This document shows positions 1-63,231 of a stretch of DNA of 64,000 nucleotides, one piece after another. This stretch comes from Botryllus schlosseri (Eukaryota). The stretch's first letter is position 1, and each line of letters begins with the position of its first letter. Made by a program: the position numbers and the translations under genes. The stretch covers positions 6,884,001 through 6,948,000 of the forward strand of contig CM119371.1 of NCBI GenBank assembly GCA_051294905.1, in the 5' to 3' direction. The notes below the pieces were generated by a model. The model had not been told where the DNA came from. It searched no databases and worked only from the letters and a program-made list of their open reading frames with translations.

Positions 1-2470
1 TTGAAAGTTGCAACTTGTTTGACTCTGATTGAAAGAAAATTACTGCCTGTGATGATAAATAAACGATACTTCGTGATAGAAACGATTCAAAATTCGAACT
101 TTGCAGTCACCAAATGTGTTGAGACTTGTTGTTACAGATTGAAATAAGATCGTTTATCGGATCGCGGTTGAGTTGAGTATAAACACCCCACTATAGCCTT
201 GATGGCAAATAATCGAATCCGAAATCATTGATTTTGTAAAAAGATAAACTCAGAATTACGGTACTCACTTTTATCTCCCAGGTAGAATTTTCATAAATTG
301 ATGCATGTCAGATTCCAACTGATTGATAACGGTTGAGATTGTCATGCAAACTTCTTTTATCACCAAATCCATTTCCCATCGGACAACCAGATCATTAAAT
401 GATACGTTATAAATTATGATCTTCTGATGGCAATTAACTGTAACAAAATGAAGAGTGGTTATGAAAAGTACACTCAATGAATGTATAATTGTATTGTATA
501 TGCACCACAGGTTGTTCAAGCCTGGCTACTGTACCAGCAAAAGTGGTTGCCTAGCCTATATAACAAGTTGCCGATAGTCGCCTCATATAAACAGAATCGA
601 AATGGTTTATTTTGAGAATACATACAAATTTGGTATCCTGATCGTGGATAACAAAAAACGAATGATTTTTTAATTAAGGTGTCCCCAAATCCGTCAAAAA
701 CCATCAAAAGAAAGATTTTATTATGTAGTAAAATATTGTTTATGCAAGATTCTCATAAAAGAAGATGGGCATATGAACTTGTAACCCAGGATTGTAATGA
801 CTCGAGTCATGACTTGAATCGAGTCCGACTTGAGTCACCATATTTTGGTGACTCGACTTGACCAGAGTCATTTTTTCAAATGCGCAAAATGACTCGACTC
901 GACCTGTAGGCCTACTCGATGCATTGAGCATGACTCGAACCAAGACATACGACTTGAAACTAGACGGCTAAGACAGACATTTCATTGTAACTTCGAAGAA
1001 TAGTAAAAGTCACCACATGTCTATTAGTTCTGATACTTGCGAAATGGGCCACAAACTGATTGTACCGAGGAAAATTACAATATTATCATTATGAATGCGA
1101 ACCATTCTATTTCACTCGAGCAGAGTTGAAAGAAGTGGGTTGGACCTGGTTGAACACAAAAAACTGAACAGTAAACACAATGACTTTGAAGAGTGAATAG
1201 CTCAAAGCATATAACGCATGCGACTCAACTAGTATTGAAATATTTCTCACTTATTTGAAATTTCCATGCATTGAGTCATTGTATGCTGTGGGGTATTTCA
1301 GGCTGAATTAGCGGAAGTGTGAAACTTGAACCGCCTGCAGTAAGCAATAGGTACGAACTCCTGATATTGGCCGTATAACCATTGTGGCAACAGTTGTAGG
1401 CTACAAGTCGTCATAATCATTGACCATGTCCATATTGAATAGGCCTAAGGAACTAAATATATGATCGGATGCATCGACTAAATCTACCGGCAAGATCATG
1501 CACTGTGGCACAATTAATGGAAGTATATTACCACAAAATTACTGGTTACTATTGCTATTACATTCATCAAATGATACGAATTTACCAAAAAGCAGTTTAC
1601 ACTTATCAAATTACTGCCGCATTGAAATAAAAATGCACAATTTTCAATGCAATAATGATGGATATGGCTTGATGAATTAAAAATATCAAATGTGAGAAAC
1701 TTTATATTCATTCATGTCAAAGCTGCAGACTTGTACTAACTACTAATTGAGTTACTTCGACGGTCAAGACTAGTTCTAATTACCGATTTTGAAAGCGATT
1801 AGTTGTAGTGTTGATATTAGTGTAAACACCAACAGCGGTACACTGGCACAGTAATTGGGTGGGTTGAAAACGGTACATTTCAAACTATTAATAAAATTCT
1901 TTTTAAACGCCGATTTTATCCCTGATATTTTCACTTATCAGGCTCATTTACAATTCAGTAATTCACATTATCAGTACTGCAGTTGCTTCAGAATTGAAAC
2001 TACTAAGTTGTTTTTATTTGCTAGTTACGGATTTTTAAAGCATGTGAATTGTAATTCTAGTAGCCAGTTTTGAAAAGTGAGTGGTTTTAGTTCTAGGTTG
2101 AGTTGCATTTTGAAAATCCAGTAATTTGTACAAGTCTGCTCAGGCGAATGCAATCTATCTCTTCACAAATATGGATGTGTAAATTTCAAAACATTGATCC
2201 ACTTTTGGTGTCACTATTGTCCATTTATCTTGTGATATATCAAACTTTTCGATTGTATGAGCGGTTTCGAAATTTGGTACTGCAAAAATCCACTTGTCAA
2301 TGTGATACACAGAAACCCAACCTTGAGAAGCATTCATAGAAGATGATGAAGTCCACTGAGCTGAAATAACATCGTAACATTCTACGTTATTGACTTTGAT
2401 TCCTGGTATCCACCCGCCGATCACAAATATCTTTTGATCAACTGCAACAACACCACTCCCACTTACAGGA
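1..2470. repeat. Segmental duplicate of ~28378-30850 (3' flank and 3' end of copies 1 and 3)
   Basis: Collinear at an offset of ~28.38 kb, with only scattered substitutions and small indels. Confidence 0.92.
787..1146. mobile_element. Truncated GACTC-family MITE
   Basis: Starts CAGGATTGTAATGACTCGAGTC and is the reverse complement of part of 25829-26394. Right end missing, so the end coordinate is approximate. Confidence 0.75.
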
Positions 2471-3780
2471 TATCTCATTGGTTCGAGATCAACCCACTCT
2501 GATGAGGATGGAGTGAATCTGCAGAATGATGAAAGTGCGACACCATCTTGTCCTTCACCTCCGATACAATAGATGGAATCATTCAATGATACGAGACTTG
2601 TTACACCAATCGCAGTAGGTTTATCTTCTAATTGAATCCATTGATTCACGAGGGAAGTAAACATTTCCACATCACTTGTTGCTACATTATAACTTCCTCC
2701 GACAACGAATATTGATCCCGACAAAGTAACTGAGCGAGGATCGGTTCCATGGTCACAAATCATGTCATTCATTTTTTCCCATTTTGAATTTTTGTTTTTA
2801 AAATGAAGTCTATGAACTGATTTATCCACACATAAAACGTAAATATAAGGGTCTAGAGAAATCGCCGAATGTTTTAAATTCGGAAACTTCTCATCATGGA
2901 ACTTCTCCACTTTCTCAGTTACTGGATTGAAGGATTGGATACAATCTGCGTAACTATCAAAAAGAATTATCAATTCATCTTTGCCAATTTCATCATTCAT
3001 TTTGTACGGTGCCTTTAAACCTTCCAAAAGATGTCCATTGATCAACTTGTACAGTTTCAAGTCGTTACTGATGATTAGGTTTGATTCCAAAAGACGTTCT
3101 AAAAATGCTGGAGAGACTTTATCAAACTTGACAGGTTCAAGACATTCGTGCAAATATTCTTGATTTTTTCCATTTTTCTCAACCCAATTGAACAATAACG
3201 TTAGTTTTTCTTCTTCGCATAAGTTTGATTTGTCCAACATCACAAATTTGAGGACGTTAGTTTTTTCGATATTTCCAAATTCAGGTTGGTTTGATATCTC
3301 CATAATATTTTCAAGAAAAAATATTCTACATCGCGTAGAGACGGCATCCAGTCCATACATATCGGCGACATTTCTTGTGGAAAAGTAATTCTCTACATTA
3401 ACTGATTCCTCCAAATAGTCAGATACTGCCTGTTTTATGTCTTCCAACTGCATCATGATTGCGACATGAAGAAGATGATTCATCTTTTCATCAGGGATCT
3501 CAAATTTGCCGGAATATATGAAATCGATGCAGTTTTTCACACATTGAGAATCGACCTCTTTCAGAACGACTTTTCCTTCGCGACTCTCTTTGGTGTCGTG
3601 TTTTAACATCGCTTTGAAGTAATCACAACCAGCCGACAATACATTTCTGTGAGTGTAATAGACATCATCTCCCACTTGAATTATGAAATCACAATGATCG
3701 TTTTCCAGCTTCATTCGATGTAATTCTTCCATCATCTTCACTGAATGTTGCTCTACATTTGGACACACAATCTGCACCAT
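2155..3780 (-). CDS. BTB-BACK-Kelch (KLHL-like) protein, copy 1, intact, intronless, 541 aa
   Basis: Uninterrupted ORF. BTB motif (CDFIIQVG..HRNVLSAGCDYFKAML..FIYSG), BACK region (EEEKLTLLFNWV) and kelch repeats (IFVVGG, IYCIGG, IFVIGG..VECYD...QW). Confidence 0.95.
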   Translation of the reverse strand: MVQIVCPNVEQHSVKMMEELHRMKLENDHCDFIIQVGDDVYYTHRNVLSAGCDYFKAMLKHDTKESREGKVVLKEVDSQCVKNCIDFIYSGKFEIPDEKMNHLLHVAIMMQLEDIKQAVSDYLEESVNVENYFSTRNVADMYGLDAVSTRCRIFFLENIMEISNQPEFGNIEKTNVLKFVMLDKSNLCEEEKLTLLFNWVEKNGKNQEYLHECLEPVKFDKVSPAFLERLLESNLIISNDLKLYKLINGHLLEGLKAPYKMNDEIGKDELIILFDSYADCIQSFNPVTEKVEKFHDEKFPNLKHSAISLDPYIYVLCVDKSVHRLHFKNKNSKWEKMNDMICDHGTDPRSVTLSGSIFVVGGSYNVATSDVEMFTSLVNQWIQLEDKPTAIGVTSLVSLNDSIYCIGGEGQDGVALSSFCRFTPSSSEWVDLEPMRYPVSGSGVVAVDQKIFVIGGWIPGIKVNNVECYDVISAQWTSSSSMNASQGWVSVYHIDKWIFAVPNFETAHTIEKFDISQDKWTIVTPKVDQCFEIYTSIFVKR

Positions 3781-3913
3781 GATTGCTAATCAAGCACAAT
3801 ATATAAGGATCCTACGATTATTATAATACAGTCAAACACTGTTATCGAAGTGAAGATTAGTTAACTCAAGTAAAATACCCGTTGAAAAAATCATAAAACT
3901 TATTAACGTCACA

Positions 3914-5078: not shown

Positions 5079-5154
5079 ACGTCACAAGTTGAATGAATGA
5101 ATTGAAGGAAAGTCAACTGCACATAAGATGAACACTGAACAGGAGGAGGATTGG

Positions 5155-5270
5155 TTCGATTTGTTTGAAATACGGTCAGATTTGTTTGAAATGAGGTCAG
5201 TCTCATGTTTGAAATGAGGATAGTCATGTCAGAAATAAGGATAGTCATGTTTGAAATAAGGATAGTCGCT
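5155..5270. repeat. Short tandem repeat, ~21-bp unit (tttgaaatragg-atagtcatg)
   Basis: About five degenerate copies visible. Confidence 0.7.
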
Positions 5271-5322
5271 ATATTCACTATAAAGTCAGTTGCAGTACCA
5301 GGCACGACTTCCCAGTGGTAGC

Positions 5323-6845
5323 CCAGTCCGAACACATCCCAGACCCAGTCCGAACACATCCCAGACATGATGTCCGAACACATCCCAGACATGATGTCCG
5401 AACACGCACCAGACACCATGTCTGAATGACAACAAAGGCCAAACACATCTCAGACACCATGTCCTAATGGCAGCAAATGCCGAACACACCTCAGACATGA
5501 TGTCCAAACACGCCCCAGACACGATGTCCGTCTGGCTGCACAGGCCGAACACACCCCAGACATGATGTCCAAACATGTGCCAGACACGATGTTCGAGTGG
5601 CAATACAGTAGGCTTACCATATTTCGGAAATGAAAAAAGAGGACACTTTTTCAGAAATTTCAGACAAGCAAAACCGGAGAATAATTCTCAAAAACAGGTA
5701 AATTTCACCCGCTTCATGATCGGTTGTCTAAAAAAAAAAAAAAAGGTCATCACTTCCGCTCAGAGCTCAAAAACACGTTTTTCACTCCACATTGCTAGGT
5801 GGATGACTAAAAAAAAAAGGTCTTCTTTTCGCTCAGAGCTCAAAATCACGTTTTTCACTCCACATTGCCAGGTGGATGACTAAAAAAAAAGGTCTTCTTT
5901 TCGCTCAGAGCTGAAATCACCACTTTTCCGTCCGAAATACCCCCCGGAGCTTCACTTCTGCACTAATTTGCGGCATATCACTCGCAATTTCCTCTAAATC
6001 TGACCTAAATTTTCAAAAAAGAGGACAAAATCTCAAAAAAGAGGACAAAAGGGCGTCCTCCGAGGACACTTTCAAAAAAGTCAAAAAAGAGGACAAATCC
6101 TCTTAAAAGAGGACGTATATGGTAAGCCTACAATACAGGCCTAACACGCCCAAGACACCATTACGTCTGAATGGCAACACAGACCGAACGCGCCCCAGAC
6201 ACGATGTCCGAGTGTCAACTCTGATCCGAACACAACCCAGATACCATGTTTGAATGGCCGAACATGCCCCAGACACGATGTGCGATTGGCAGCACAGGCT
6301 GAACACACCCCAGACATGATGTCCAAGCACGCCCCAGACACGATGTCCGGGTATCAACACAGGCTGAACACGCCCAAGACACCATGTCCGAATGGCAGCA
6401 CAGACCGAACACGCCCCAGACACCATGTTTGAATGGCAATATCACATACCGAACACGCCCCAGACACGATGTCCGCGTATCAACACAGGCCGAACACGCC
6501 GAAGACACCATGTCCGACCGAACACGACCCAGACACGATATCTGAGTGTCAACTCAGTCCGAACACAACCCAGACACCATGTTTGAATGGCCGAACACGC
6601 CCCAGACACGATGTCCGATTGGCAGCACACGCCAAACACACCCCAGACATGATGTCCGATTGGCAGCACAGGGCGAACACACCCCTGACATGATGCCCAA
6701 ACACGCGCCAGACACGATATCCGAGTGTCAATACAGGCCTAACACGCCCAAAGACACCATGTCTGAACGGCAACACAGACCGAACACGCCCCAGACACAA
6801 TGTCCGAGTGTCAACTCAGTCCGAACACAACCCAGATACCATGCA
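5323..6845. repeat. Minisatellite built on ccgaacacgccccagacacgatgt with variable linkers, interrupted by a MITE
   Basis: Dozens of degenerate copies of the ~24-bp core with recurring linkers (ggcagcacagg, gagtgtcaactcagt). Confidence 0.9.
5609..6130. mobile_element. hAT-type MITE (TAGGCTTACCATA TIR, Blackjack-like) inserted in the minisatellite
   Basis: TIR TAGGCTTACCATAT / ATATGGTAAGCCTA. TSD caatacag (5601-5608, 6131-6138). Subterminal GAGGACA motifs. Second copy at 56266-56796. Confidence 0.88.
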
Positions 6846-14970: not shown

Positions 14971-16025
14971 TTGTAACCCAAGATATATTTGGAAGCACGT
15001 ACATACGGTACTATGTGACTTGTGAGTATACCTTTTGAAGAGTGAATAACTTGAGAGCAAATATCGTACCAGGTTCAACAACGAAGAGGAACAAGGAAGA
15101 CATCATCCACAATCATTTGAAATTTTCATGCATTCAGTTATTCAGTGCTGTGGGTTATTTCATCTGAATTATAGGATGTGTAAAACTGATACCACTTACG
15201 AACAGCAATCAGTAGGTTCCCAACTCATGATATCAGCCACATAACCATTGTGGAATCAATTGTCCAGGTCATTAAAATCATCGACCATATCTATATTGAA
15301 TGAATAATGGACTAAACAGATAATGGGCTGTATCAACTAAAATTGCTTGCAGATTATGCACTGTGGTACAAATAATGAAGTATATTTCCACAAAATTACT
15401 GCTTACTACTACTATTACATTCATCAAATGATATGAATCTTACCGTAACAGTAGTTTACACTTAAATTTGAAAATCCGAACATTCAAAGTTACGCCGATT
15501 TGAAACAAAACATTCACAATTTTAAAGGCAATTATGATGGATTGAAAATGAAATGAAAATTGAAATTGTGAGCAACTTTCTAGATAGTTGACGGTCAAGA
15601 GCTTTTCTAGTTACTGAACTGACAGAAGTTCTAGCATCGTCGTTTACTTGTTTGGTGTGAATAATGATGCTGGTGTTTTGTTGTGTGATGTTCTTGCAGC
15701 CCCTGCTAGATCAGAGTCAACATTACTAACGGTGTCATAGCCAGAGGTGGGTTGGGGTGGTCGGAAACCGCCTCACCCTAACACATATTCTATCTCCAAC
15801 GTTTCTTTGCTCATTTCCAATTCAGTAATTTGCATTATCAGTTCTGCAGTTGCTTCGAAGTTGAATCTACATAATTGCATTTTAGTTCGCTAGTCACGGA
15901 TTTTTAAAGCATGTTAATTCTAATTCTAGAAGTCGATTCTGAAAAGTGAGTGGTTTTACTTCTAGTTTGAGTCGCACATTTTGAAAATCCAGTAATTTGC
16001 ACAAGTCTGATTAGGAGAGTGCAAT

Positions 16026-17653
16026 CTATCTCTTCAGAAATACGGATGTGAAAATTTGGAAACATTGATCTACTTTTGGTTTCACTATAGTCCATTTGTC
16101 TTGCCATATATCATACTTTTCAATTGCAAAAGAGGTTTCGTAATCTGTTACAGCAAATATCCACTTGTCAACGTGATACGCAGAAACTTGACACTGACAA
16201 GCATTCATAGAAGATAATGAAGTCCACTGAGCTGAAGTAACATCGTAACATTCTACGTTGTTGACTTTCTTTCCTCCACTCGCCCCACCGATCAAAAATA
16301 TCTTCTGATCAATTGCAACAACACCACCGAAACATACAGGATATCTCATTTGGTCGAGATCAACCCACTCTGATGAGGACGGAGTGAATCTGCAGAATGA
16401 TGAAACTTCATCATAATCATCTCCTATACCTCCGATACAATAGATGGAATCATTCACTGATACCAGACTTGTATTACATATCGCTGTTGGTTTGTCTTCG
16501 AGTTGAATCCAGTGATTAACGGGTGAAGTAAACATTTCCACACCACTTGTTGCTTTATGACCACCTCCTCCAATAACGAATATCGATCCGGACAAAGAAA
16601 CTGAGCGAGGACTGAATCCATGGTGACAAATCATATCTTTCATCCTTTCCCATTTTGAATTTTTGCTCTGCAAATTGAGTCGATAAACTGATTTATTCCC
16701 ACATAGAACGTAGATATACGAGTCTAGAAAAATCGCCGAAAAATTTCTTGAATTTTGAAACGTCTCATCATGAAACTTCTCTACTTTCTCAGTTACTGGA
16801 TTGAAGGATCGCATATAATCTGCATTACGATCGAAAAGAATTATCAATTCATCATTGCCAATTTCTTCGTTCATTTCGTGCGATGCTTTTAGAGCTTCTA
16901 AAAGATGTCCATTGATCAACTTGTACAGTCTTAAGTCGTTACTGATAATTAGGTTTGATTCCAAAAAACGTTCTAAAATGCGGGAGAGACTTTATGAAAC
17001 TTGATCGCTTCAAGACACTCGTGCAAATGTTCCCGATTTTTGCAATTTTTCTCAATCCAATTGAACAATACCGTTAGTTTTTCTTCTTCGCATAACTTTG
17101 ATTGTTCAGACTTCACAAAATTGAGGATGTTAGTTTTTTCAATATTTCCAAATTCGGGTTAGTTTGAAATTTCCATGATATTTTCATGAAAAAATGCTCT
17201 ACATCGCGAAGAGACGGCATCCAGTCCATACATATCGGCGACATTTCTTGTGGAAAAGTAATTCAATACATAAATTGATCCCTCCAAAACGTCAGATACT
17301 GCCCGTTTCACATCTTCCAACTGCATCATCATTGCGACATGAAGAAGATCATTCATCTTTTCATCAGGAATCTCTAATTTACCCGAATATATGAAACCGA
17401 TGCAGTTTTTCACACACTGAGAATCGACCTCTTTCAAAACGACTTTCCCTTCGCGACTCTCTTTAGTGTCGTGTTTCAACATAGCTTTGAAATAAGCACA
17501 ACCAGCCGACAACACATTCTTGTGAGTGTAATAGACATCATCTCCAACTTGAATTATGAAATCACAATGATCGTTTTCTTGCTTCATTCGATGTAATTCT
17601 TCCATCATCTTCATTGAATGTATCTCTACATTTCGACACACAATCTGCACCAT
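16026..17653 (-). pseudogene. BTB-BACK-Kelch copy 2, disrupted
   Basis: Collinear with copy 1. CAA>TAA nonsense codon at 17159-17161 (ISN* versus ISNQPEF in all paralogs). 1-bp deletion in the A-run at 16975-16978 (ttctaaaatg versus ttctaaaaatg). The 194 nt between the two ORF pieces is not a multiple of 3. Confidence 0.9.
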
Positions 17654-18451
17654 GATTGTCAATCAACTATAACTATCCTACGAATATTATAATATAGTCA
17701 AGCACTGTTATTGAATTGAAGATGATTACAACACACAAGACACAAGTATAATGCCTGTTGAAACAATCATAATACGCATATCAACGTCACGAGTATGAAT
17801 TGAAGGAAATTCAACTACACACAAGGTGAACACTGAACAGTGCTAAATCAGAGGCATCCCTTCCATTATGCAGTTATGAAAAAAATTTTCCATCGTTTTG
17901 CTCAACTTTTTATTCGTTGAATTGACACGAACCCAAAGAGTTATTGCGGTCGATTACCACCGCCTCGCGAATGATCGAGTTGATTATCCGCAATCTTAAT
18001 TATATTTTGGATCATTGTAAAATAATTTCACACTATGGTATATTCCAGAGGGGCGGCCGTATCTGTTTCACGCTCCAGCCGAATATCACAAAGATTGATT
18101 TTAAAAGAGCAGCAACGAGAAAGATCACGCTGATTTTACTCCGTGTTTGGAAACGAAATCAACGAAGCATGTAGCTTGTCAGTGTCATCTGACGGATAAC
18201 ACTGGTCTCCACGATTTTTGCGCCCGGACTTCTTTGGGTCAATTACGCAATTATAACTAATTTGGGGGCGCTGAATACGAATCTGACGTTATCTTTGCTC
18301 TATCATATCACGTTGTTGAGATATTATATATGTTGAATAACATAACATAACATTGTTGGGTTATTATTTTTATCTGAACAAGTCACACACAATGTACAAT
18401 GCGATAAGACACAATGCGATGTCATGAACAGATAAGAGGATGTCGAACGAC

Positions 18452-30536: not shown

Positions 30537-33500
30537 CTATCTCTTTACAAATATGGATGTGTAAATTTCAAAACATTGATCCACTTTTGGTGTCACTATT
30601 GTCCATTTATCTTGTGATATATCATACTTTTCGATTGTATGAGAGGTTTCGTAATCTGTTACTGCAAAAATCCACTTGTCAATGTGATACACAGAAACCC
30701 AATCGTGACAAGCATTCATAGAAGATAAAGAAGTCCAGTGAGCTGAAGTAACATCGTAACATTCTACGTTGTTGACTTTCATTCCTGGTGTCCACCCGCC
30801 GATCACAAATATCTTTTGATCAACTGCAACAACACCACTCCCACATACACGATATCTCATTGGTTCGAGATCAACCCACTCTGATGAGGATGAAGTGAAT
30901 CTGCAGAATGATGAAACTATGACATCATCTTGTCCTCTACCTCCGATACAATAGATGGAATCATTCAACGATACGAGACTTCCATCATATATCGCTGTAG
31001 GTTTGTCTTTCAGTTGAAACCATTGATTCACAGGGGAAGTAAATATTTCCACATCACTCGTTGCTTTACTATAACTTCCTCCAACAACGAATATCGATCC
31101 TGACAAAAAAACTGAGCGAGGATTACTTCCATGATCACAAATCATATCTTTCACCCTTTCCCATTTTGAATTTTTGCTCTGAAAATTGAGTCGATGAACT
31201 GATTTATTCCAACATAAGACGTAGATGTACGAGTCCAGACAAATCGGTGAAAACTGTGTTAAATTCCTAAACTTTTCCTCGTGAAACTTCTCTAGTTTCT
31301 CAGTTACTGGATTGAAGGATCTGATACAATCTGCCTGATTGTCAAAGAGAATTATCAATTCATCTCTGCTGATTTCTTCGTTTGTTTTCTGTGATGCTTT
31401 TAACAGATGTCGAGTGATCAACTTGTACAGTCCGAAGTCGTTACTGATAATTTGGTTTGATTCCAAAAGACGTTTTAAAAATGCCGAAGAGACTTTATCA
31501 AACTTGATCGCTTCAAGACATTCGTGCAAATGTTCCTGATTTTTCCGATTTTTCTCGACCCAATTGAACAATAACGTTAGTTTTTCTTCTTCGCATAATT
31601 TTGATTGTTCCAACTTCACAAAATTCTGGATGTAAGTTTTTTCAATATTTCCAAATTCGGGCTGGTTTGAAATTTCCATGATATTTTCATGAAAAAATGT
31701 TCTACATTGCGTAGAGATGACATCCAGTCCATACATATCGGCGACATTTCTTGCAGAGAAGTAATTCTTTACATTAAGTGTTTCCTCCAAAATGTCAGAT
31801 ACTGCCTGTTTCACGTCTTCCAACTGCATCATGATTGCAACATGAAGAAGATCATTCATCTTTTCATCAGGAATCTCAAATTTGCCGGAATATATGAAAT
31901 CGATGCAGTTTTTCACACACTGAGAATCAACCTCTTTCAAAACGACTTTTCCTTCTCGACTCTCTTTAGTGTCGTTTTTCAACATGGCTTTGAAATAAGC
32001 AGAACCAGCCGACAATACATTTTTGTGAGAGCAATAGACATCATCGGGCATCCCTAAAAGACGGAGAAGCGGAGGCAGCGGAGACAGCGGAGGCAGCGGA
32101 GAATGGACCCTAAAACGCGGAAGCAACGGAGACGGCGGAGAGAGCCAAAAATGCCGATTCCTAAAAGACGGAGACAGCGGACCTAGCGGAGAGCGGAGAT
32201 TTCGGTCATTAACCTTTATAGACACGCGCGACATAGCGGACGGATACTGAAAGCGGAGTCCGGGACCCCGCGAAATGGACATAGCAGACGGTTATATAAT
32301 ATAGACAGCGGAGATCAGGGCGTATCGGAAGATATTTCGAAGCAGTGGAGAATAACGGAGAAGTCAGCCATGCAAGTTCAAGGCCAATTGGGCGACTGAT
32401 TGCCCATCGATGAGATGACATAGCGGGCGGTTATATAATACAAGGAAAGCGGAGTTCGGGGCGTATCGGAAGATGTTTCGAAGCAGTGGAGAATAACGGA
32501 GAAGTCAGCCATGCAAGTTCAAGGCCAATTGGGCGACTGATTGCCCATCGATGAGATGACATAGCGGGCGGTTATATAATACAAGGAAAGCGGAGTTCGG
32601 GGCGTATCGGAAGATGTTTCGAATCAGTGGAGAATAACGGAGAAGTTAGCCATGCAAGTTCAAGGCCAATTGGGCGACTGATTGCCCATCGATGAGATGA
32701 CATAGCGGGCGGTTATATAATACAAGGAAAGCGGAGTTCCGGGCGTATCGGAATATGTTTCGAAGCAGTGGAGAATAACGGAGAAGTCAGCCATGCTATT
32801 TCAAGGCCAATTTGGCGACTGATTGCCCGTCGATGAGATGACATAGCGGAGGGATACTGAAAGCGGAGTTCGGGCCCCCGCGAATTAGACATAGCGGACG
32901 GTTATATAATATAGAGAGCGAAGATCAGGGCGTATCGGAAGATGTTTCGAAGCAGTGGAGAATAACGGAGAAGTCAGCCATGCAAGTTCAAGGCCAATTG
33001 GGCGACTGATTGCCCATCGATGAGATGACATAGCGGAGGGATACTGAAAGCGGAGTTCGGGCCCCCGCGAAATAGACATAGCGGACGGTTATATAATATA
33101 GAGAGCGAAGATCAGGGCGTATCGGAAGATGTTTCGAAGCAGTGGAGAATAACGGAGAAGTCAGCCATGCAAGTTCAAGGCCAATTGGGCGACTGATTGC
33201 CCATCGATGAGATGACATAGCGGGCGGTTATATAATACAAGGAAAGCGGAGTTCAGGGCGTATCGGAAGATGTTTTGAAGCAGTGGAGAATAACGGAGAA
33301 GTCAGCCATGCGAGTTCAAGGCCAATTGGCGACTGCTGATTGCCCGTCGATGAGATGACACAGCGGGCGGTTATATGATACAAAGAAAGCGGAGTTCGGG
33401 GCGTATCGGAAGATGTTTCGAAGCAGTGGAGAATAACGGAGAAGTCAGCCATATGCAAGTTCAAGGCCAATTGGGCGACTGATTGCCCAATGCCCATCGA

Positions 33501-36016
33501 TGAGATGACATAGCGGGCGGTTATATAGTACAAAGAAAGCGGAGTTCGGGGCGTATCGGAAGATGTTTCGAAGCAGTGGAGAATAACGGAGAAGTCAGCC
33601 ATGCAAGTTCAAGGCCAATTGGGCGACTGATTGCCCATCGATGAGATGACATAGCGGGCGGTTATATAATACAAGGAAAGCGGAGTTCAGGGCGTATCGG
33701 AAGATGTTTTGAAGCAGTGGAGAATAACGGAGAAGTCAGCCATGCGAGTTCAAGGCCAATTGGCGACTGCTGATTGCCCGTCGATGAGATGACACAGCGG
33801 GCGGTTATATGATACAAAGAAAGCGGAGTTCGGGGCGTATCGGAAGATGTTTCGAAGCAGTGGAGAATAACGGAGAAGTCAGCCATATGCAAGTTCAAGG
33901 CCAATTGGGCGACTGATTGCCCAATGCCCATCGATGAGATGACATAGCGGGCGGTTATATAGTACAAAGAAAGCGGAGTTCGGGGCGTATCGGAAGATGT
34001 TTCGAAGCAGTGGAGAATAACGGAGAAGTCAGCCATGCAAGTTCAAGGCCAATTGGGCGACTGATTGCCCATCGATGAGATGACATAGCGGGCGGTTATA
34101 TAGTACAAAGAAAGCGGAGTTCGGGGCGTATCGGAAGATGTTTCGAAGCAGTGGAGAATAACGGAGAAGTCAGTCATGCTATTTCAAGGCCAATTTGGCG
34201 ACTGATTGCCCGTCGATGAGATGACATAGCGGACGGATACTGAAAGTAGAGTTCGGGGCGTAGCGGAAGATGTTAAGAAACAGCGGTGAAAAACGGAAAA
34301 GTCAACCATGCAATTTGGTGTATTTCAAAGTATTCGATAATATATAACCGGCACATATTTTTTTCGATTTGGGTTATTTCCGGTACTTACTGAAGTGGTA
34401 ATGTTTCGCAATTACTTCAACATCTACCTGAACAGTATTCTGGATGAAATTATTACATTTGCAATTCGGATTTTGTAAAGTAGAAAGTAGTTCAGTATAA
34501 TATTCGACAACTATCAACAGTTAAATTGTCATACGAAACGCGTCCGCTATGTCATCTCATCGATGGGCAAGCAATCACCGAAGTGGCCTGAAACTCGCAT
34601 GGCAGACTTCTCCGTTATTCTCTGCTGTTTCGAAATATATTTCGCTACGCCCCAAACTCCGCTTTCAGTATATTATAACGATATAACCGTCTGCTATGTC
34701 ATCTCATCGATGGGCAATCAGTCACCTTGAACTCGCATGGCTGACTTCTCCGCTATTCTCCACTGCTTCGAAACATCTTCCGATACGCCCTGATCTCCGC
34801 TTTCTATATTATATAACCGTCCGCTATGTCTATTTCGCGGGGCCCCGAACTCCGCTTTCAGTATCCGTCCGCTATGTCATCTCATCGACGGGCAATCAGT
34901 CGCCAAATTGGCCTTGAAATAGCATGGCTGACTTCTCCGTTATTCTCCACTGCTTCGAAACATCTTCCGATACGCCCCGAACTCCGCTTTCTTTGTACTA
35001 TATAATCGCCCGCTATGTCATCTCATCGACGGGCAATCAGTCGCCCAATTGGCCTTGAACTTGCATGGCTGACTTCTCCGTTATTCTCCACTGCTTCGAA
35101 ACATCTTCCGATACGCCCCGAACTCCGCTTTCCTTGTATTATATAACCGCCCGCTATGTCATCTCATCGATGGGCAATCAGTCGCCCAATTGGCCTTGAA
35201 CTTGCATGGCTGACTTCTCCGTTATTCTCCACTGCTTCGAAACATCTTCCGATACGCCCTGATCTCCGCTTTCTATATTATATAACCTTCCGCTATGTCT
35301 ATTTCGCGGGGCCCCGAACTCCGCTTTCAGTATCCGTCCGCTATGTCATCTCATCGAAGGGCAATCAGTCGCCTTGAACTCGCATGGCTGACTTCTCCGC
35401 TATTCTCCACTGCTTCGAAACATCTTCCGATACGCCATGATCTCCGCTTTCTATATTATATAACCGTCCGCTATGTCTATTTCGCGGGGCCCCGAACTCC
35501 GATTTCAGTATCCGTCCGCTATGTCATCTCATCGACGGGCAATCAGTCGCCCAATTGGCCTTGAACTTGCATGGCTGACTTCTCCGTTATTCTCCACTGC
35601 TTCGAAACATCTTCCGATACGCCCTGCTCTCCGCTTTCTATATTATATAACCGTCCGCTATGTCCATTTCGCGGGGTCCCGGACTCCGCTTTCAGTATCC
35701 GTCCGCTATGTCGCGCGTGTCTATAAAGGTTAATGACCGAAATCTCCGCTCTCCGCTAGGTCCGCTGTCTCCGTCTTTTAGGAATCGGCATTTTTGGCTC
35801 TCTCCGCCGTCTCCGTTGCTTCCGCGTTTTAGGGTCCGTTCTCCGCTGCCTCCGCTGTCTCCGCTGCCTCCGCTTCTCCGTCTTTTAGGGATGCCCGACA
35901 TCATCTCCTACTTGAATTATGAAATCACAATGATCGTTCTCCTGCTTCATTCGATGTAATTCTTCCATCATCTTCACTGAATGTTTCTCTACATTTGGAC
36001 ACACAATCTGCACCAT
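30537..36016 (-). pseudogene. BTB-BACK-Kelch copy 3, interrupted after codon 40 by a Foldback-type element; otherwise open
   Basis: Native ATG at 36016. 35897-36016 encodes MVQIVCPNVEKHSVKMMEELHRMKQENDHCDFIIQVGDDV. The rest (DDVYCSHKNVLSAG...FVKR*) is an open frame from 32045 down to 30537. Confidence 0.92.
32046..35896. mobile_element. Non-autonomous Foldback-type (MULE-like) DNA transposon, 3851 bp
   Basis: Termini GGGCATCCCTAAAAGACGG...CCGTCTTTTAGGGATGCCC. Perfect 9-bp TSD gacatcatc (32037-32045 and 35897-35905). Inverted arms at about 32046-34312 and 34541-35896 built of 141/187-bp tandem units, with a loop of about 230 bp. No transposase ORF. Confidence 0.93.
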
Positions 36017-44169: not shown

Positions 44170-45801
44170 CTATCTCTTCACATATGCGGATTTGTAAATT
44201 CGACAACACTTATCAACTTTTGGCTTCACTACAGTCCATTTATCTTGCGATATATCATAATTTTCAATTGCATTAGGGGTTCCTCCATCTGTTACTGCAA
44301 GAATGCACTTGCCAATGTGATAAGCACAAACTCGACCATGACAAGCATTCATAGAAGATAATGAAGTCCATTGAGCTGAAGTAACATCGTAACATTCTAC
44401 GCTGTTGACTTTCTTTCTTCCTCCCCTCATCCCACCGATCACAAATATCTTTTGTTCAACTGCAACAACACCACTGTCAGATACAGCATAACTCATTGGG
44501 TCGAGATCAACCCACTCTGATGAGGATGGAGTGAATCTGCAGAATGATGAAACTATGACTTCATCTTGCCCTATACCTCCGATACAATAGATGGAATCAT
44601 TCAATGATACAAGACTTGTGAAACGAATCGCGGCAGGTTTGTCTTCTAGTTGAATCCATTGATTCAAGGGTGGGGTGAATACCTCCACCACACTTGTTGC
44701 TTTAGGAAAACTTCCTCCAATAACAAATAGCAATCCTGACGAAGAAACTACACGAGGATAGGTTCCATGCTCACAATTCATATCTTTCTTCCTTTCCCAT
44801 TTTGAATTTTTGGTCTGAAAATTGAGCCGATGAACTGATTTATTCCCACATAAAACGTAGATATACGAGTCTAGAGAAATCGCCGAGAAATGTGCTAAAT
44901 TTTTAAACTTCTCATCATGAAACTTCTCTACTTTCTTAGTTACTGGATTGAAGGATTTGATACAATTTGCTTCATCATCAAAAAGAATTATTAATTCATC
45001 TTTGCCGATCTCTTCGTTTGTTTTCTGTGATGCTTTTGAAGCCTTCAAAAGATGTCCAGTGATCAACTTGTACAGTCCTAAGTCGTTACTGATGACTAGG
45101 TTTGTTTCCAAAACGCGTTCTAAAAATGCCGGAGAGACTTCATCAAACTTGATTGCTTCAAGAAATTCGCACAAATGTTCCTGATTTTTGCGATTTTTTT
45201 CAACCCAATTGAACAATAAGGTTAGTTTTTCTTCTTCGCATAACTTAAATTTTTCTGACTTCACAAAATTGAGGATGCTAGTTTTTTCAACGATTCCAAA
45301 TTCTGGTTGGTTGGATATTTTCACGATATTTTCAAGAAAAAATGCTCTACATCGCGTAGAGACGGCATCCAGTCCATACATATCGGCAACATTTCTTGTG
45401 GAAAAGTAATTCTCTACATTAAGTGATCCCTCCAAAACGTCAGATACTGCCTGCTTCACGTCTTCCAACTGCATCATTATTGCGACATGAATAAGATCAT
45501 TCATCTTTTCATCAGGAATCTCAAATTTGCCCGAATATATGAAATCGATGCAGCTTTTCACACACATAGAATCGACCCCTTTCAAAACAACTTTTCCTTC
45601 ACGACTCTCTTTTGTATCGTGCTTTAACATAGCTTTGAAATAATCACAACCAGCCGACAATACATTTCTGTGAGTGTGATAGACGTCATCTCCCACTTGA
45701 ATTATGAAATCACAATGATCGTTCTCTTGCTTCATTCGATGTAATTCTTCCATCATCTTCACTGAATGTTTCTCTACATTTGGACATACAATCTGCACCA
45801 T
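44170..45801 (-). CDS. BTB-BACK-Kelch copy 4, intact, intronless, 543 aa
   Basis: Uninterrupted ORF paralogous to copy 1. The ATG (MVQIVC) is 9 nt inside the TTG start used by the ORF track. Confidence 0.95.
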   Translation of the reverse strand: MVQIVCPNVEKHSVKMMEELHRMKQENDHCDFIIQVGDDVYHTHRNVLSAGCDYFKAMLKHDTKESREGKVVLKGVDSMCVKSCIDFIYSGKFEIPDEKMNDLIHVAIMMQLEDVKQAVSDVLEGSLNVENYFSTRNVADMYGLDAVSTRCRAFFLENIVKISNQPEFGIVEKTSILNFVKSEKFKLCEEEKLTLLFNWVEKNRKNQEHLCEFLEAIKFDEVSPAFLERVLETNLVISNDLGLYKLITGHLLKASKASQKTNEEIGKDELIILFDDEANCIKSFNPVTKKVEKFHDEKFKNLAHFSAISLDSYIYVLCGNKSVHRLNFQTKNSKWERKKDMNCEHGTYPRVVSSSGLLFVIGGSFPKATSVVEVFTPPLNQWIQLEDKPAAIRFTSLVSLNDSIYCIGGIGQDEVIVSSFCRFTPSSSEWVDLDPMSYAVSDSGVVAVEQKIFVIGGMRGGRKKVNSVECYDVTSAQWTSLSSMNACHGRVCAYHIGKCILAVTDGGTPNAIENYDISQDKWTVVKPKVDKCCRIYKSAYVKR

Positions 45802-46259
45802 GATTGTCAATCATCCACAATAGGCTGTACAGAATGATGCTATGATTATTATGATATAGTCAAGCACTGTTTTTGAAGCAAAGATGATTAGTAGGGCGAT
45901 TTTTTTTACTTCAAAAAGTCAAATTTTTTTTTGACCCCTGCATTTCGTTTGTATCGTACATTTTGCACTGTCGGTGAAGTTATCATTTGATATTTTATAG
46001 CTTGTTGCCTATTTTATAGGCCTACCGTTGCAGACGGCACATTGTCTGCTGATTGTGAATCATAAATGGTTTCAAGCCAACACACTCTCACTACTAATAA
46101 GCATTGGTCAGAAACGAAATTTAGCAAGTAATTTTGGGACGCCAACTCCATTAAGCGAAAAATTAGCCAAACTATGACTCATCAGTCCACAGCCATGGTT
46201 GCAGGGAACAGATAAGACAAAGTCAGAGATACATTGAATTTCAAATGTAACCTGAACAC

Positions 46260-52757: not shown

Positions 52758-54398
52758 TTATCTCTTCACATATATGGACCAGTAAATTAAAAACTCTTGA
52801 TCTACTTTTGGTTTCACTAGAGTCCATTTGTCTTGCGATACATCATACTTTTCAATTGGATTGTAGGCTCCAAAATTTGATACTGCAAAAATCCACTTGT
52901 CAATGTGATAAGCAGAAACTTGATCATGACAAGCATTCATAGAAGATAATGAAGTCCACTGAGATGAAGTAACATCGTAACATTCTACGTTGTTGACTTG
53001 GACTCCTTCCCTCACTCCACCGATCACAAATATCTTCTGTTCAACTGCAACAACACCAGTGGTAGACACAGGATATCTCATTGGGTCGAGATCAACCCAC
53101 TCTGATGAGGATGGAGTGAATCTGCAGAATGATGAAACTATGACTTCATCTTGCCCTACACCTCCGATACAATAGATGGAGTCATTCAATGATACGAGAC
53201 TTGCATCAGAAATCGCTGTAGGTTTGTCTTCTAGTTGAAACCATTGATTTGCGAGAGAAGAAAATATTTCCACGTCACTTGTTGCTTCAACACAACTTCC
53301 ACCAACAACAAATATCGATCCTGACAAAGAAACTGAGCGAGGACATAGTCCATGGTCACAAATCATATCTTTCATCCTTTCCCATTTTGAATTTTTGCTC
53401 TGAAAATTGAGTCGATGAACTGATTTATTATCACATAGAACGTAGATATACGAGTCTAGAGAAATTGCTGAGAAATCTTTTAAATTCCCAAACTTCTCAT
53501 CATGAAACTTCTCTACTCTTTCAGTTACTGGATTGAAGGATCGGATACAATCTGCGTCACCATCTGTATCACCATCAAAAATAATTATCAATTCATCGTC
53601 GCCAACTTCTTCATTCATTTTGTGCGATGCTTTCAAAGCTTCTAAAAGATGTCCATTGATCAGCTTGTACAGTCCAAAGTCGTTTTTGATAATTTGGTTC
53701 GATTTCAAAAGACGTTCTAAAAATACCGGAGGGACTTTATTAAACTTGATTGCTTCGAGACACTCTTGCAAATTTTCCTGATTGCTTCGAGTTTTCTCAA
53801 CCCAATTGAACAATAATGCTAGTTTGTCTTCTTCACATAACTTTGATTTTTCCGACATCACAAATTTGAGGATGTTAGCTTTTTCAATATTTCCAAATTC
53901 AGGTTGGTTTGATATTTCCATGATATTCTCATAAAAAAACTCTTTACATCGCATAGAGACGGCATCCAGTCCATACATATCGGCGACATTTCTTGTAGAA
54001 AAGTAATTCTCTACATCAAGTGATTCCTCCAATACGTCAGATACTGCCTGTTTCACGTCATCCAACTGCATCATGACTGCGACATGTAAAAGATCATTCA
54101 TCTTTCCATCATAAATCTCAAATTTGCCCGAATATATGAAATCGATGCAGTTTTTCACACACCTAGAATCGACCTCTTTCAAAACGACTTTTCCTTCCCG
54201 ACTCTCTTTGGTGTCATGCTTTAACATAGCTTTGAAATAAGCACAACCAGCCGACAATACATTTCTGTGAGTGTAATAGACATTATCCCCTACTTGAATT
54301 ATGAAATCACAATGATCGTTTTCTTGCTTCATTCGATGTAATTCTTCCATCATCTTCACTGAATGTTTCTCTACATTTGGACACACAATCTGCACCAT
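52758..54398 (-). CDS. BTB-BACK-Kelch copy 5, intact, intronless, 546 aa
   Basis: Uninterrupted ORF paralogous to copy 1, with a short acidic loop insertion (FDGDTDGDAD). Confidence 0.95.
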   Translation of the reverse strand: MVQIVCPNVEKHSVKMMEELHRMKQENDHCDFIIQVGDNVYYTHRNVLSAGCAYFKAMLKHDTKESREGKVVLKEVDSRCVKNCIDFIYSGKFEIYDGKMNDLLHVAVMMQLDDVKQAVSDVLEESLDVENYFSTRNVADMYGLDAVSMRCKEFFYENIMEISNQPEFGNIEKANILKFVMSEKSKLCEEDKLALLFNWVEKTRSNQENLQECLEAIKFNKVPPVFLERLLKSNQIIKNDFGLYKLINGHLLEALKASHKMNEEVGDDELIIIFDGDTDGDADCIRSFNPVTERVEKFHDEKFGNLKDFSAISLDSYIYVLCDNKSVHRLNFQSKNSKWERMKDMICDHGLCPRSVSLSGSIFVVGGSCVEATSDVEIFSSLANQWFQLEDKPTAISDASLVSLNDSIYCIGGVGQDEVIVSSFCRFTPSSSEWVDLDPMRYPVSTTGVVAVEQKIFVIGGVREGVQVNNVECYDVTSSQWTSLSSMNACHDQVSAYHIDKWIFAVSNFGAYNPIEKYDVSQDKWTLVKPKVDQEFLIYWSIYVKR

Positions 54399-55296: not shown

Positions 55297-56265
55297 GTTG
55301 TAAGCAGCAGATAGCACAAAGGCAGAGATACATTGAATTTCAAGCTTGACCTGAACACAGTCGTGTCTTAAATTTAGTGTTGATATGTTCATAAAAACCT
55401 GCCATGCCAAAGCCTCAGGTTCCGCAAAAACTAACTCAATATTATTCAAAACACGGAAGCGAAGGGAAGATGTCAAACTATTTGTAGTACCAAAGCATAA
55501 GAATCAAAACTTCGTCTGTACATATTAAGAGTTAGAATGCGCAATCTCAATTGCAGATTTCCACAAGTAAAATAAACCGCATTTTGGCTTTGGGGATAAT
55601 CAGGATTAACACATCTGTGAAATGCAGTGGTTCTTGACCTTTTCATGGATGCGGTCCAATTTTCATTTTTCAGATATGCCATGATCCACAACTCAGCCTC
55701 AATCTTCATCTAAGCGGCAGAAATATGGCAGGTTTAGACCTAGCAAGAGAGGTGACCTATGTAATGAATGTAACATTACAATTCCCTTGTCATTGACATA
55801 AGTTATTGTTTCAATGCAATAGCAGGTGGTGAATTGAGCATGGGGCGTCAATATCATTTACGAGCGGCACAGTGAAACTTTACGATTCTTCAAGGGATAT
55901 CTGGCCCTTGACTTAAACAACTAGAACTTTTTAGATTTTACAAATTAGGGTACAATCAGATATATAGCTACACTGTTTGTTTTCAAATGAAGGGTAAAAT
56001 TAGAATCATAGCTAAACACTATTTTCCAAAATATATTAAAATAGGAAATATAGTTACACATTTTTCCTAATTACATTAGAATTGCAGAGTTCACGAAAAC
56101 TTGGTCATTAAAATCAAGTTCAATTCGAATCAAATCATAGTTCCGAGCACGATAACGGAAAATGTCTGTACCGCAAGCTTAGCTCGTTTCGAGCTATTCG
56201 GTTCTTCTGCAGCATTTAGAGTAAAACGGGAAATTAGATGAAAATTAAAATCAGAGAATAGAAAC

Positions 56266-56796
56266 TAGGCTTGCCATACGTCCTCTTTCAAGAGGATTTG
56301 TCCTCTTTTTTGACTTTTTTGAAAGTGTCCTCGGAGGACGCCCTTTTGTCCTCTTTTTTGAGATTTTGTCCTCTTTTTTGAAAATTTAGGCAGATTTAGA
56401 GCAAATTGCGAGTGATATGCCGCATATTAGCATAGAAGTGAAGCTCCGACGGGTATTTCGGAGTGGAAAACGGTGATTTTAGCTCTGAGCGAAAAGATCA
56501 CCTTTTTTTTTTTTTTTTTTTTTTTTAGTCATCCACTCGGCGATGGGGAGTAAAAAACATTATTTTGTGCTCTGAGCGGAAAATATGACCTTTTTTTTTT
56601 TAGTCATCCACTCGGCAATGGGGAGTAAAAAACGTTATTTTGAGCTCTGGGCGGAAAAGATGACCTTTTTTTTTTAGTCAACCGATCACAAAGTGGGACA
56701 AATTAACCGGTTTTTGAGAATTTCACTCCGGTTTTGCAAGTTGCAAATTTCTGAAAAAGTGTCCTCTCTTTTGATTTCCAAAATATGGTAAGCCTA
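56266..56796. mobile_element. hAT-type MITE, same family as 5609-6130, opposite orientation
   Basis: TIR TAGGCTTGCCATA / TATGGTAAGCCTA. TSD atagaaac (56258-56265, 56797-56804). Confidence 0.88.
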
Positions 56797-57313
56797 ATAG
56801 AAACATTTCTGAAATTAAATCAGAATTAGAGCAAGGACACATTTCACGAATTCGATTACTTGCATTTCAACCTAATTAGTCAAATTGTACAACTAAAATT
56901 ATGTAGTTGTCGAAGTAGGGCTGGACAGTCTCCGAATTTTTAGGTGAACTGTTTGATTTGGAGTCCGACTTGGATTGTTAATTGGTGCCTGCAGTGGGCT
57001 TCGCCTGGTCTTTAGATGTCGACAAATTGAAGGAGGCGCTTCTCGTAATGAGTTCACGACAAATGTGAAATTTTGTCCGTGTCTGCTTCTGTGACAACCT
57101 GTGATGGGACTGGGGTTGAATTTAACGTATTCTTCGTTTTGCTGCTTCGAGCCGCCACATTCTTAGTCCCCTTGAAACTTCGCCGGGTTTGTGCTGCTTC
57201 ACGGCTTCCTTAATCTGCAAAAATATCAGTGAGACAGTCAATACTAGCATTGGAATCGCAGACTATTAAGGTATTTTTCAAATCCTGGGATTTCGAGAAA
57301 GCATCTTCAAGAG

Positions 57314-61400: not shown

Positions 61401-61599
61401 AAAAACGCACAATAACGCAGCCAGAGAGTGGGTTTTGAAGGTGGAAAACCGCCCCATTTCTAACTGCAAACTCCATTCTTTTCACAACGCCGATTCTATC
61501 TCCTGTATTTCTTTGTTCATTTCCAAGTAGTCAGTAATTCGCATTATAAGTACTGCAGTTAATCGGAATTGAAAACCCAGTAAAATGAACAAGTCTGCT

Positions 61600-63231
61600 C
61601 TATCTCTTGACAAATATGGATGAGTAAATTCGACAACATTGATCTACTTTTGGTTTCACTATAGTCCATTGGTCTTGTGATATATCATATTTTTCAATTT
61701 GATCAGAGGTTTCGTAATTTGTTACTGCAAATATCCACTTGCCAATGTGATAAGTAGAAACACGATAATGACGATCGTTCATAGGAGATAATAAAGTCCA
61801 CTGAGATGAAGTAATATCGTAACATTCTACGTTTTCGACTTGTGCTCCTACCCTCACACCACCGATCACAAATATCTTCTGATTAACGGCAACAACACCA
61901 CTACTATATACAGGATCTCTCATTGGGTCGAGATCAACCCACTCTGATGAGGATGGAGTGAATCTGCAGAATGATGAAACTATGGCACCATCTTGTCCTA
62001 TACCTCCGATACAATAGATGGAATCATTCAATGATACGAGACTTGTATCACAAATTCCTCCTGGTTTGTCTTTTAATTGCATCCATTGATTAACGGGTGA
62101 AGTATATATTTCCACATCACTTGTTGGGTTAGCAATACTTCCTCCAACAACGAATATCAATCCTGACAAAGCAACTGAGCGAGGTTGGTTTCCATGGTCA
62201 CAAATCATATCTTTCATCTTTTCCCATTTCGAATTTTTACTCTCAAAATTGAGGCGATGAACTGATTTATTCCCACGCAAAACGTAGATATAATTGTCTA
62301 GAGATATCGCCGAGAAACAGTGTTTCAAATTCTTAAACTTTTCATCATGAAACTTGTCTAGTTTTTCAGTTACTGGATGGAAGGATCGGATACAATCTGC
62401 GTTATCATCAAAAAGAATTATCAATTCATCTTTGCCCATTTCGTCATCCATTTTGTGCGATGCTTTTAAAGCTTTCAAAAGATGTCCATTGATCAACTTG
62501 TACAGTCCCAAGTCGTTAGTCAGAATTAGGTTTGATTCCAAAAGACGTTCTAAAAATACCGGAGACACCTCATCAAACTTGATTTCTTCAAGAAATTTGC
62601 GCAAATATTCCTGATTTTTGCGATTTTTCCCGACCCAATTGAACAATAACGTTAGTTTTTCTTCTTCGCACAACTTTGATTGTTCTGACTTCACATAATC
62701 GAGGATGTTAGTTTTTCCAATATTTCCAAATTCAGGTTGGTTTGATAACTCCATGATATTTTCATGAAAAAATATTCCGCATCGCATAGAGACGGCATCC
62801 AATCCATACATATCGGCGACATTTCTTGTGGAAAAGTAATTCTTTACATCAACTGATATCTCCAAAACGTCAGACACTGCCTGTTTCACGTCATCCAAAT
62901 GCATCATGATTGCGACATGAAGAAGATCATTCATCTTTTCATCAGGAATCTCAAATTTACCGGAATATATGAAATCGATGCAGTTTTTCACACACTGAGA
63001 ATCGACTTCTTTCAAAACAACTTTTCCTTCACGACTCTCTTTTGTATCGTGCTTTAACATAGCTTTGAAATAAGCACAACCAGCCGACAATACATTTCTG
63101 TGAGTGTAATAGACATCATCTCCCACTTGAATTGTGAAATCACAATTATCGTTCTCTTGCTTCATTCGATGTAATTCTTCCATCATCTTCACTGAATGTT
63201 TCTCTACATTTGAACATACAATCTGCACCAT
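61600..63231 (-). CDS. BTB-BACK-Kelch copy 6, intact, intronless, 543 aa
   Basis: Uninterrupted ORF paralogous to copy 1. Confidence 0.95.
   Translation of the reverse strand: MVQIVCSNVEKHSVKMMEELHRMKQENDNCDFTIQVGDDVYYTHRNVLSAGCAYFKAMLKHDTKESREGKVVLKEVDSQCVKNCIDFIYSGKFEIPDEKMNDLLHVAIMMHLDDVKQAVSDVLEISVDVKNYFSTRNVADMYGLDAVSMRCGIFFHENIMELSNQPEFGNIGKTNILDYVKSEQSKLCEEEKLTLLFNWVGKNRKNQEYLRKFLEEIKFDEVSPVFLERLLESNLILTNDLGLYKLINGHLLKALKASHKMDDEMGKDELIILFDDNADCIRSFHPVTEKLDKFHDEKFKNLKHCFSAISLDNYIYVLRGNKSVHRLNFESKNSKWEKMKDMICDHGNQPRSVALSGLIFVVGGSIANPTSDVEIYTSPVNQWMQLKDKPGGICDTSLVSLNDSIYCIGGIGQDGAIVSSFCRFTPSSSEWVDLDPMRDPVYSSGVVAVNQKIFVIGGVRVGAQVENVECYDITSSQWTLLSPMNDRHYRVSTYHIGKWIFAVTNYETSDQIEKYDISQDQWTIVKPKVDQCCRIYSSIFVKR

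Follow-up and report, generated by a model that had tools for sequence, protein, structure and literature searches.

The 64,000-nucleotide stretch of Botryllus schlosseri DNA analysed here (C1:6884001-6948000 of a 495.5 Mb assembly; referred to as the window) belongs to a tandem array of roughly 1 Mb, C1:6.54-7.60 Mb, of genes encoding BTB-BACK-Kelch proteins. Taking the evidence as a whole, we consider it fairly probable that these genes form a lineage-specific tandem family with a constant scaffold and diversified loops, which brings varied targets to a Cullin-3 (Cul3) ubiquitin ligase. The BTB-BACK module and the beta-strands of the Kelch propeller are under purifying selection, and at codons of the propeller loops the ratio of nonsynonymous to synonymous differences per site (pN/pS) exceeds 1. 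Docking on Cul3, ubiquitylation and a set of varied or fast-evolving targets are what we infer beyond this. A sequence-only reading of the window, which covered about 6% of the array, had described a tandem array of intronless BTB-Kelch genes with hypervariable loops and had taken it for a diversifying repertoire of Cul3 adaptors. Its observation was partly confirmed, far beyond chance, and its interpretation is partly supported.

All six open reading frames (ORFs) of at least 200 residues in the window lie on the minus strand and encode BTB-BACK-Kelch paralogs (2155-3780, 16026-16874, 30537-32282, 44170-45801, 52758-54398 and 61600-63231). Pfam searches found Kelch_1 in all six translations, and BTB (PF00651, E-values 1e-17 to 2e-21) and BACK (PF07707, 1e-11 to 6e-14) in five of them; the translation lacking a BTB or BACK match is the C-terminal fragment of the broken copy 2. 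For copy 1, the E-values are 2e-21 (BTB), 2e-13 (BACK) and 1e-25 (Kelch_1). The copies are laid out as follows.

2155..3780, minus strand: copy 1, intact intron-free BTB-BACK-Kelch gene, 541 residues (ORF and Pfam)
16026..17653, minus strand: copy 2, pseudogene (alignment to copy 1 over the whole length)
30537..32045, minus strand: copy 3, 3' part, from codon 41 to the stop codon (self-BLAST break at 32045, and translations)
32046..35896, no strand assigned: satellite insertion splitting copy 3 (self-BLAST)
35897..36016, minus strand: copy 3, 5' part, codons 1-40, MVQIVC...GDDV (self-BLAST and alignment)
44170..45801, minus strand: copy 4, intact, 543 residues, basis of the structure model (ORF and Pfam)
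52758..54398, minus strand: copy 5, intact, 546 residues, with an extra insertion in the first B-C loop (ORF and Pfam)
61600..63231, minus strand: copy 6, intact, 543 residues (ORF and Pfam)

The six same-strand paralogs that had been reported are thus all present on the minus strand, but only four of them are intact (541-546 residues) and two are pseudogenes. In copy 2, the start codon of which we place at 17653, codon 165 is an in-frame stop and 1 bp is deleted at nucleotide 676; its duplication unit aligns over 15809-17790 in self-BLAST. Copy 3 is interrupted after codon 40 by 3.85 kb of a foldback-like block of a 141-bp satellite (G+C content about 0.50), in which the arrays are direct at 32278-34313 and inverted at 34544-35748. 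The listed 581-residue ORF at 30537-32282 starts within this insertion and reads on into copy 3. The invariant motifs and the six variable segments quoted in the sequence-only reading stand in the translations exactly as quoted, as does the loop insertion DGDTDGD of copy 5, and the six segments remain the most variable places across the 45 intact copies of the array.

A genome search with copy 4 yielded 534 first-look candidates, 80 of which were scored; the resulting counts are lower bounds. Fifty-three of the 80 scored matches lie within C1:6.54-7.56 Mb. At least 45 matches in the array are full-length and free of stop codons, with 75-100% identity, three of the 45 being on the plus strand. 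At least eight further copies in this region of about 1 Mb are broken or partial, and the stops, the frameshift and the insertion found in the array bear out the proposed birth and death of copies. Coding regions are intron-free across the copies of the family. Further clusters are located elsewhere on contig C1 (near 8.1, 13.9, 14.8-15.7 and 36 Mb) and on C3, C4, C5, C14 and C16. A conserved 24-mer from the BTB region has 130 genomic sites at up to three mismatches (reversed control: 0), and 58 of the 100 sites listed fall in C1:6.59-7.60 Mb; five sites of the array were counted solely as matches to this 24-mer.

An intron-free HSP70 ORF in the same assembly is 99% identical to HSP70 of Botryllus schlosseri (Q93147) and 84% to that of Styela clava, which places the organism as B. 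schlosseri or a very close relative; a search of the assembly for COX1 found none. The 44 distinct sequences from the array group together as a single clade (support 0.93) when compared with 21 paralogs located elsewhere in the genome. When 1:1 orthologs were sought by protein database search, the best match to copy 4 among 5.8 billion proteins was an unnamed protein with 47% identity, and the best named matches were KLHL12 and KLHL24 of Styela clava with 30%. The single clade and the distant best match uphold the view that the expansion is lineage-specific.

Two pairs of copies are nearly identical in spite of their distance. The coding sequences at C1:6706539-6709146 and C1:6851376-6853983, 145 kb apart, are identical, and copy 4 of the window has a 98% identical twin at C1:7129059-7133687, 202 kb away. 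Such twins suggest that large segments of the array were duplicated recently. Three adjacent plus-strand copies at C1:7172157-7219882, in an otherwise minus-strand array, suggest a local inversion. Of the 31-mers sampled from the copy 4 region, 51-63% occur in the probable source sample but only 5-16% in sequencing runs of other samples of the species; strong variation in haplotype or copy number could explain this, as could low coverage.

Constraint on the scaffold was estimated from pairwise comparisons. The 44 copies compared have a mean pairwise synonymous divergence (dS) of 0.285, with similar values in the BTB, BACK and Kelch parts, so that the invariant stretches reflect constraint and not homogenisation. 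Across 19 disjoint pairs, pN/pS amounts to 0.19 for BTB, 0.37 for BACK and 0.32 for the strands.

Selection on the loops was assessed by tests which do not require a tree. In the first of these, the window copies and near twins were left out, and the remaining 38 sequences were arranged as 19 disjoint nearest pairs. The 30 codons singled out in the sequence-only reading have a pN/pS of 1.37 in these 38 independent sequences (binomial p 0.021). For cross-validation, 41 sequences were divided at random into halves, 20 times over; the most diverse codons were chosen in one half and measured in the other. The resulting pN/pS was 1.57 for the top 10, 1.57 for the top 20, 1.52 for the top 30 and 1.47 for the top 40 codons, and exceeded 1 in all 20 splits for each set. 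After removal of columns within three codons of a gap, values of 1.94, 1.65 and 1.50 were obtained. One hundred neutral simulations with 44% neutral sites gave a top-30 mean of 0.92 (standard deviation 0.07, maximum 1.09) and a top-10 maximum of 1.23; none of them reached the observed values (top-30: 1.52). Both the 30 preselected codons and the cross-validated ones thus support diversifying selection concentrated in the presumed target-binding loops. The B-C and D-A loops account for 22 of the 30 codons chosen recurrently. Loop codons picked out in the analysis are, in copy 4, residues 277, 300, 319, 347/348, 394, 410, 416, 441/442, 458-467, 489/490 and 504-511. Diversity peaks at the same positions in 20 paralogs of other clusters (Spearman 0.63), with 17 of the top 30 in the B-C and D-A loops.

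An AlphaFold2 model of copy 4, based on an alignment of 52 rows, has a mean pLDDT (predicted local distance difference test score) of 88.4. It predicts a BTB domain followed by BACK helices that extend to residue 258, then a disordered linker and a propeller of 24 strands in six four-stranded blades, blade 1 being closed by the C-terminal strand. The top full-length Foldseek matches are complexes with Cul3, namely KBTBD2-CUL3-RBX1 (8h36, E 4e-32) and KLHL22-CUL3 (8khp); the Kelch domain of KLHL12 matches with a template modelling score of 0.85 and a root-mean-square deviation of 3.0. A Cul3 gene is present on C14, its first exon being 93-96% identical to most of the listed Cul3 proteins. The phi-x-E motif for Cul3 contact corresponds to T63-K64-E65, which is nearly invariant in the family, with the Glu kept. 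On homology and fold, docking on Cul3 is likely. Other multi-exon cullin genes were seen on C2 (Cul1), C7 (Cul2) and C10 (Cul4), and cullin-family matches in long open frames at C16:7991915-7992472 (797 residues) and C12:18148225-18154474 (1327 residues).

The strand order of the predicted model identifies the variable segments as B-C and D-A loops, in line with their earlier assignment. These loops form the substrate pocket in KEAP1, KLHL3 and KLHL12. In a phmmer alignment with KEAP1, the hypervariable residues S364-P366, F394, V440-D442, G489 and T504-T508 fall at or beside N382-P384, R415, R483, S508 and Y525-Q530 of KEAP1, which we take to be Nrf2 contacts.

We propose the following mechanism. 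The BTB-BACK module would, by homology, dimerise and dock on Cullin-3. The genes multiply through tandem and segmental duplication, recombination or gene conversion between paralogs shuffles the copies, and copies are lost via stops, frameshifts and insertions. Selection holds BTB-BACK and the beta-strands constant and favours amino acid change at about 20-30 codons, mostly in the B-C and D-A loops. The outcome would be at least 45 different receptors in the array and more than 100 genome-wide, most likely bringing varied targets to the Cul3 ligase.

Tree-based codon models were run with our own code as a grid mixture in which the nonsynonymous rate (beta) may exceed the synonymous rate (alpha). 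Under the one-ratio model M0, omega is 0.48. Allowing beta > alpha improves the fit by 217 in twice the log-likelihood difference (2dlnL). At p<0.05, 32 codons are positive and 144 are negative; at p<0.01, the positive codons number 18. Positive codons make up 19 of the 107 codons in the B-C/D-A loops and six of the 166 other Kelch codons (Fisher 1e-4); in the whole remainder of the protein there are 13 in 435 codons (Fisher 4e-7 against the loops). A tree from the Kelch part alone gave 26 positive codons, 22 of which are in common with the 25 found there on the full tree. Neutral data simulated on the right tree gave only five or six positive codons and a 2dlnL of 4.5-8.7.

Several results weigh against the proposed reading or narrow what may be concluded from it. 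The N-terminal and Kelch halves of the genes have incompatible trees (log-likelihood differences of 314 and 495). In addition, C1:7549995-7554620 and C1:7057784-7062409 differ at 16 codons (11 synonymous, five not), all in the BTB part, and this looks like a recombination or gene-conversion tract. Both the mutual rejection of the half trees and this pair indicate that the paralogs recombine. Neutral simulations analysed on a wrong tree produced 25-32 false-positive codons, with p down to 1e-10 and a 2dlnL of 185-236. The tree-based site tests do find 32 positive codons, 19 of them in the B-C and D-A loops, but neutral data on a wrong tree give a signal of the same size. We therefore do not rest the claim on tree-based tests, and use the FEL-like and FUBAR-like results from single trees only to map where fast sites lie. 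A PAML-like test without synonymous rate variation (2dlnL 926) was rejected, as neutral simulations gave 483-766; it is miscalibrated even on the right tree. Single-tree site models are thus unsafe on recombining paralog arrays, while the cross-validated pairwise test is unaffected.

The loop classes taken whole do not stand out either, with a pN/pS of 1.14 for B-C (p 0.13), 0.68 for D-A and 0.86 for both. Compared with the cross-validated values of 1.5-1.9, this indicates that the loops are a mix of conserved positions and about 20-30 codons evolving above the neutral level. The idea that the variable sites lie on the top face holds for the 22 recurrent loop codons, but not for some others, at residue 7, at BACK positions 175, 204, 211 and 235, and at strand columns 503, 539 and 552. 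'Top face' itself is a predicted placement, drawn from strand order and the alignment with KEAP1, and the likely docking on Cul3 is drawn from homology and fold only. The phi position is occupied by Thr, compared with Leu in KEAP1 (L-R-E) and KLHL22 (L-K-E). As to expression, the sequencing runs listed as matching copy 4 included no RNA run, and RNA reads over copy 5 and its flanks are few: all bins in the ORF are low (0.3-5.7 in the bulk run, both strand columns summed) and several bins in the flanks read 0. Reads fitting copy 5 only in part amount to 422 of 424 in the bulk run and 773 of 977 in the single-cell run. Since this applies to nearly all bulk reads, they probably come from paralogs, and the RNA seen here reflects at most transcription of paralogs and not of copy 5 itself. 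Finally, the analysis covers one assembly.

Relaxed constraint might by itself produce such a pattern, if redundant copies with few conserved functions drifted neutrally in their loops, and if recombination and the picking of sites mimicked selection where no adaptive repertoire exists. This would agree with the whole-class values of 0.86-1.14, with wrong-tree simulations matching the tree-based signals in size, and with recombining paralogs that include at least eight broken or partial copies. However, it leaves unexplained the cross-validated pN/pS of 1.5-1.9 in 20 of 20 splits, where none of 100 neutral simulations went beyond 1.09 for the top 30 codons. Moreover, 45 ORFs remain uninterrupted, with a mean pairwise dS near 0.28 and a BTB pN/pS of 0.19, and the loop positions that vary most are the same in 20 paralogs of other clusters (Spearman 0.63). 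We therefore regard relaxed constraint as quite unlikely to be the whole explanation. A germline or reproductive family of KLHL10-like type, that is, retrogene-derived gonad adaptors evolving fast through sexual, gametic or germline-competition conflict, is also an unlikely alternative. Reproductive genes often show pN/pS >1, and an intron-free coding part is typical of retrogene origin. The available part of one report also lists a 'Kelch-like protein 10' transcript and Kelch domains as upregulated in fertile Botryllus colonies (PMC4523013). The nearest named relatives of the family, however, are annotated as KLHL12, KLHL24 and KLHL2, not as KLHL10.

Intron-free coding and high copy number would also suit cargo of a mobile element or of an endogenised large DNA virus. 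Intron-free BTB-Kelch families occur in poxviruses and other Nucleocytoviricota, and two Nucleocytoviricota BTB-Kelch clusters are near by protein-atlas features (scores 0.97 and 0.96). Yet the 22 other ORFs of at least 100 residues in the window are all without a significant Pfam family, the ground on which viral or transposon cargo was rejected, and no transposase, integrase or capsid gene was found in the window. The repeated units are tandem segmental duplications, the flanks of which decay at about the synonymous rate, and the array forms a single clade within a set of chromosomal paralogs that are spread over at least six contigs. An origin as such cargo is therefore very improbable.

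For the Cul3 adaptor family with diversified loops, the nature of the targets is a separate question. That they are foreign or selfish elements is pure conjecture and one possibility among others. In its most specific form, which we consider rather unlikely, the family would be an intracellular, germline-encoded repertoire of more than 100 Cul3-type adaptors destroying viral, transposon or foreign (allogeneic or parasitic stem-cell) proteins. If true, Botryllus, better known than any other chordate for natural chimerism and allorecognition, would possess a ubiquitin-ligase analogue of the TRIM and NLR repertoires.

Between the genes, the window consists of repeats and decayed duplicated flanks. 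In self-BLAST, nucleotide identity between copies is 82-86% in the ORFs and 70-78% in the flanks, recent pairs excepted. Across 45 copies, column identity is 80-100% in blocks of about 85 nt before the ORF and 130 nt after it, and identity drops to 70-78% past the upstream block. An example of the upstream block is given below.

45802..45890, minus strand: upstream block, putative 5' untranslated region (UTR) or core promoter (consensus of 45 upstream flanks)

The block contains a pyrimidine-rich stretch ending in AG near -62, as well as TATA-like motifs; this AG might serve as an acceptor, either of a 5' UTR intron or in trans-splicing.

Among the 22 other ORFs, a single Pfam match below the cut-off was obtained (Herpes_VP19C), located inside the satellite. 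Scans of the window for transfer RNAs and Rfam families found none. The repeat at 56141-56941 (inverted copy at 5609-6130) has a tandem unit of 73-75 nt and poly(A/T) runs. It shows by far the highest RNA depth of the examined stretch (up to 109 in the single-cell run), a word depth of tens of thousands in the contig runs, and reads extending into many other sequences; the element is probably interspersed, abundant and transcribed. At 5374-6843 there are GC-richer tandem repeats with units of 41, 65-69, 106 and 268 nt, of the type CCGAACAC...CCAGACAC, which yield several spurious ORFs of 105-138 residues.

Expanded, positively selected cullin-RING receptors are known in nematodes and plants, where they are thought to serve intracellular defence. 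A BTB-BACK-Kelch equivalent in a chordate is undescribed as far as our literature searches show. Supplementary tables apart, these found no description of the Botryllus family or of such a chordate expansion. The words 'Kelch' and 'BTB' are absent from the text of the preprint on the chromosome-level Botryllus genome (10.1101/2024.05.29.594498) and from the available text of the Botrylloides violaceus genome paper (PMC10542563), and 'Kelch' is absent from the available text of a histocompatibility review (PMC12065747). Botryllus, in which the array is located, serves as a model of allorecognition, of chimerism and of stem-cell parasitism, which makes the idea testable. The array also offers a natural collection of Kelch pockets that share a single constant scaffold.

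The protein atlas returned only generic BTB-BACK-Kelch neighbours. With the KLHL/KBTBD proteins (KEAP1, KLHL3, KLHL12, KLHL22, KBTBD2) the family shares the order of BTB, BACK and six-bladed Kelch propeller, the full-length fold match to KBTBD2-CUL3 and KLHL22-CUL3, and the Glu of the phi-x-E motif. However, identity is only 18-30%, and the Botryllus proteins are compact (about 540 residues) with an intron-free coding region. More than 100 copies in tandem arrays stand against single conserved orthologs, the phi residue is Thr, and the loops are hypervariable between paralogs. Compared with the BTB-Kelch proteins of poxviruses and other Nucleocytoviricota, the genes are likewise intron-free and multi-copy and are near by language-model features, but they are organised as a 1 Mb chromosomal array among host-type repeats, with no viral genes nearby. 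The fuhc, fester and FcoR genes belong to the same organism and also form polymorphic or expanded clusters of recognition genes. They encode secreted or membrane proteins of immunoglobulin type, whereas the BTB-Kelch family is cytosolic by architecture and is located on the largest contig. According to the available text of a review, fuhc is on chromosome 11 and the fester/FcoR clusters are on 11, 5 and 9, a HECT-type ubiquitin ligase being encoded beside each fester/FcoR pair (PMC12065747).

Close parallels are also found in the families of cullin-RING receptors that have expanded in other lineages. For the nematode families, birth and death together with positive selection in the substrate-binding domain were reportedly described by Thomas in 2006. 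Nematode MATH-BTB (BATH) and F-box, grass MATH-BTB and plant F-box-Kelch genes are described, in the available parts of the sources, as lineage-specific tandem expansions subject to birth and death, in which the adaptor domain is conserved and the substrate-binding domain positively selected (PMC4091423, PMC8120010, PMC1257465). The Botryllus family resembles the BATH and F-box families in its tandem lineage-specific expansion, its pseudogenes, its conserved adaptor and the selection on its presumed binding surface; it differs from them in presenting a Kelch propeller as receptor on a BTB-BACK chassis, and in doing so in a chordate.

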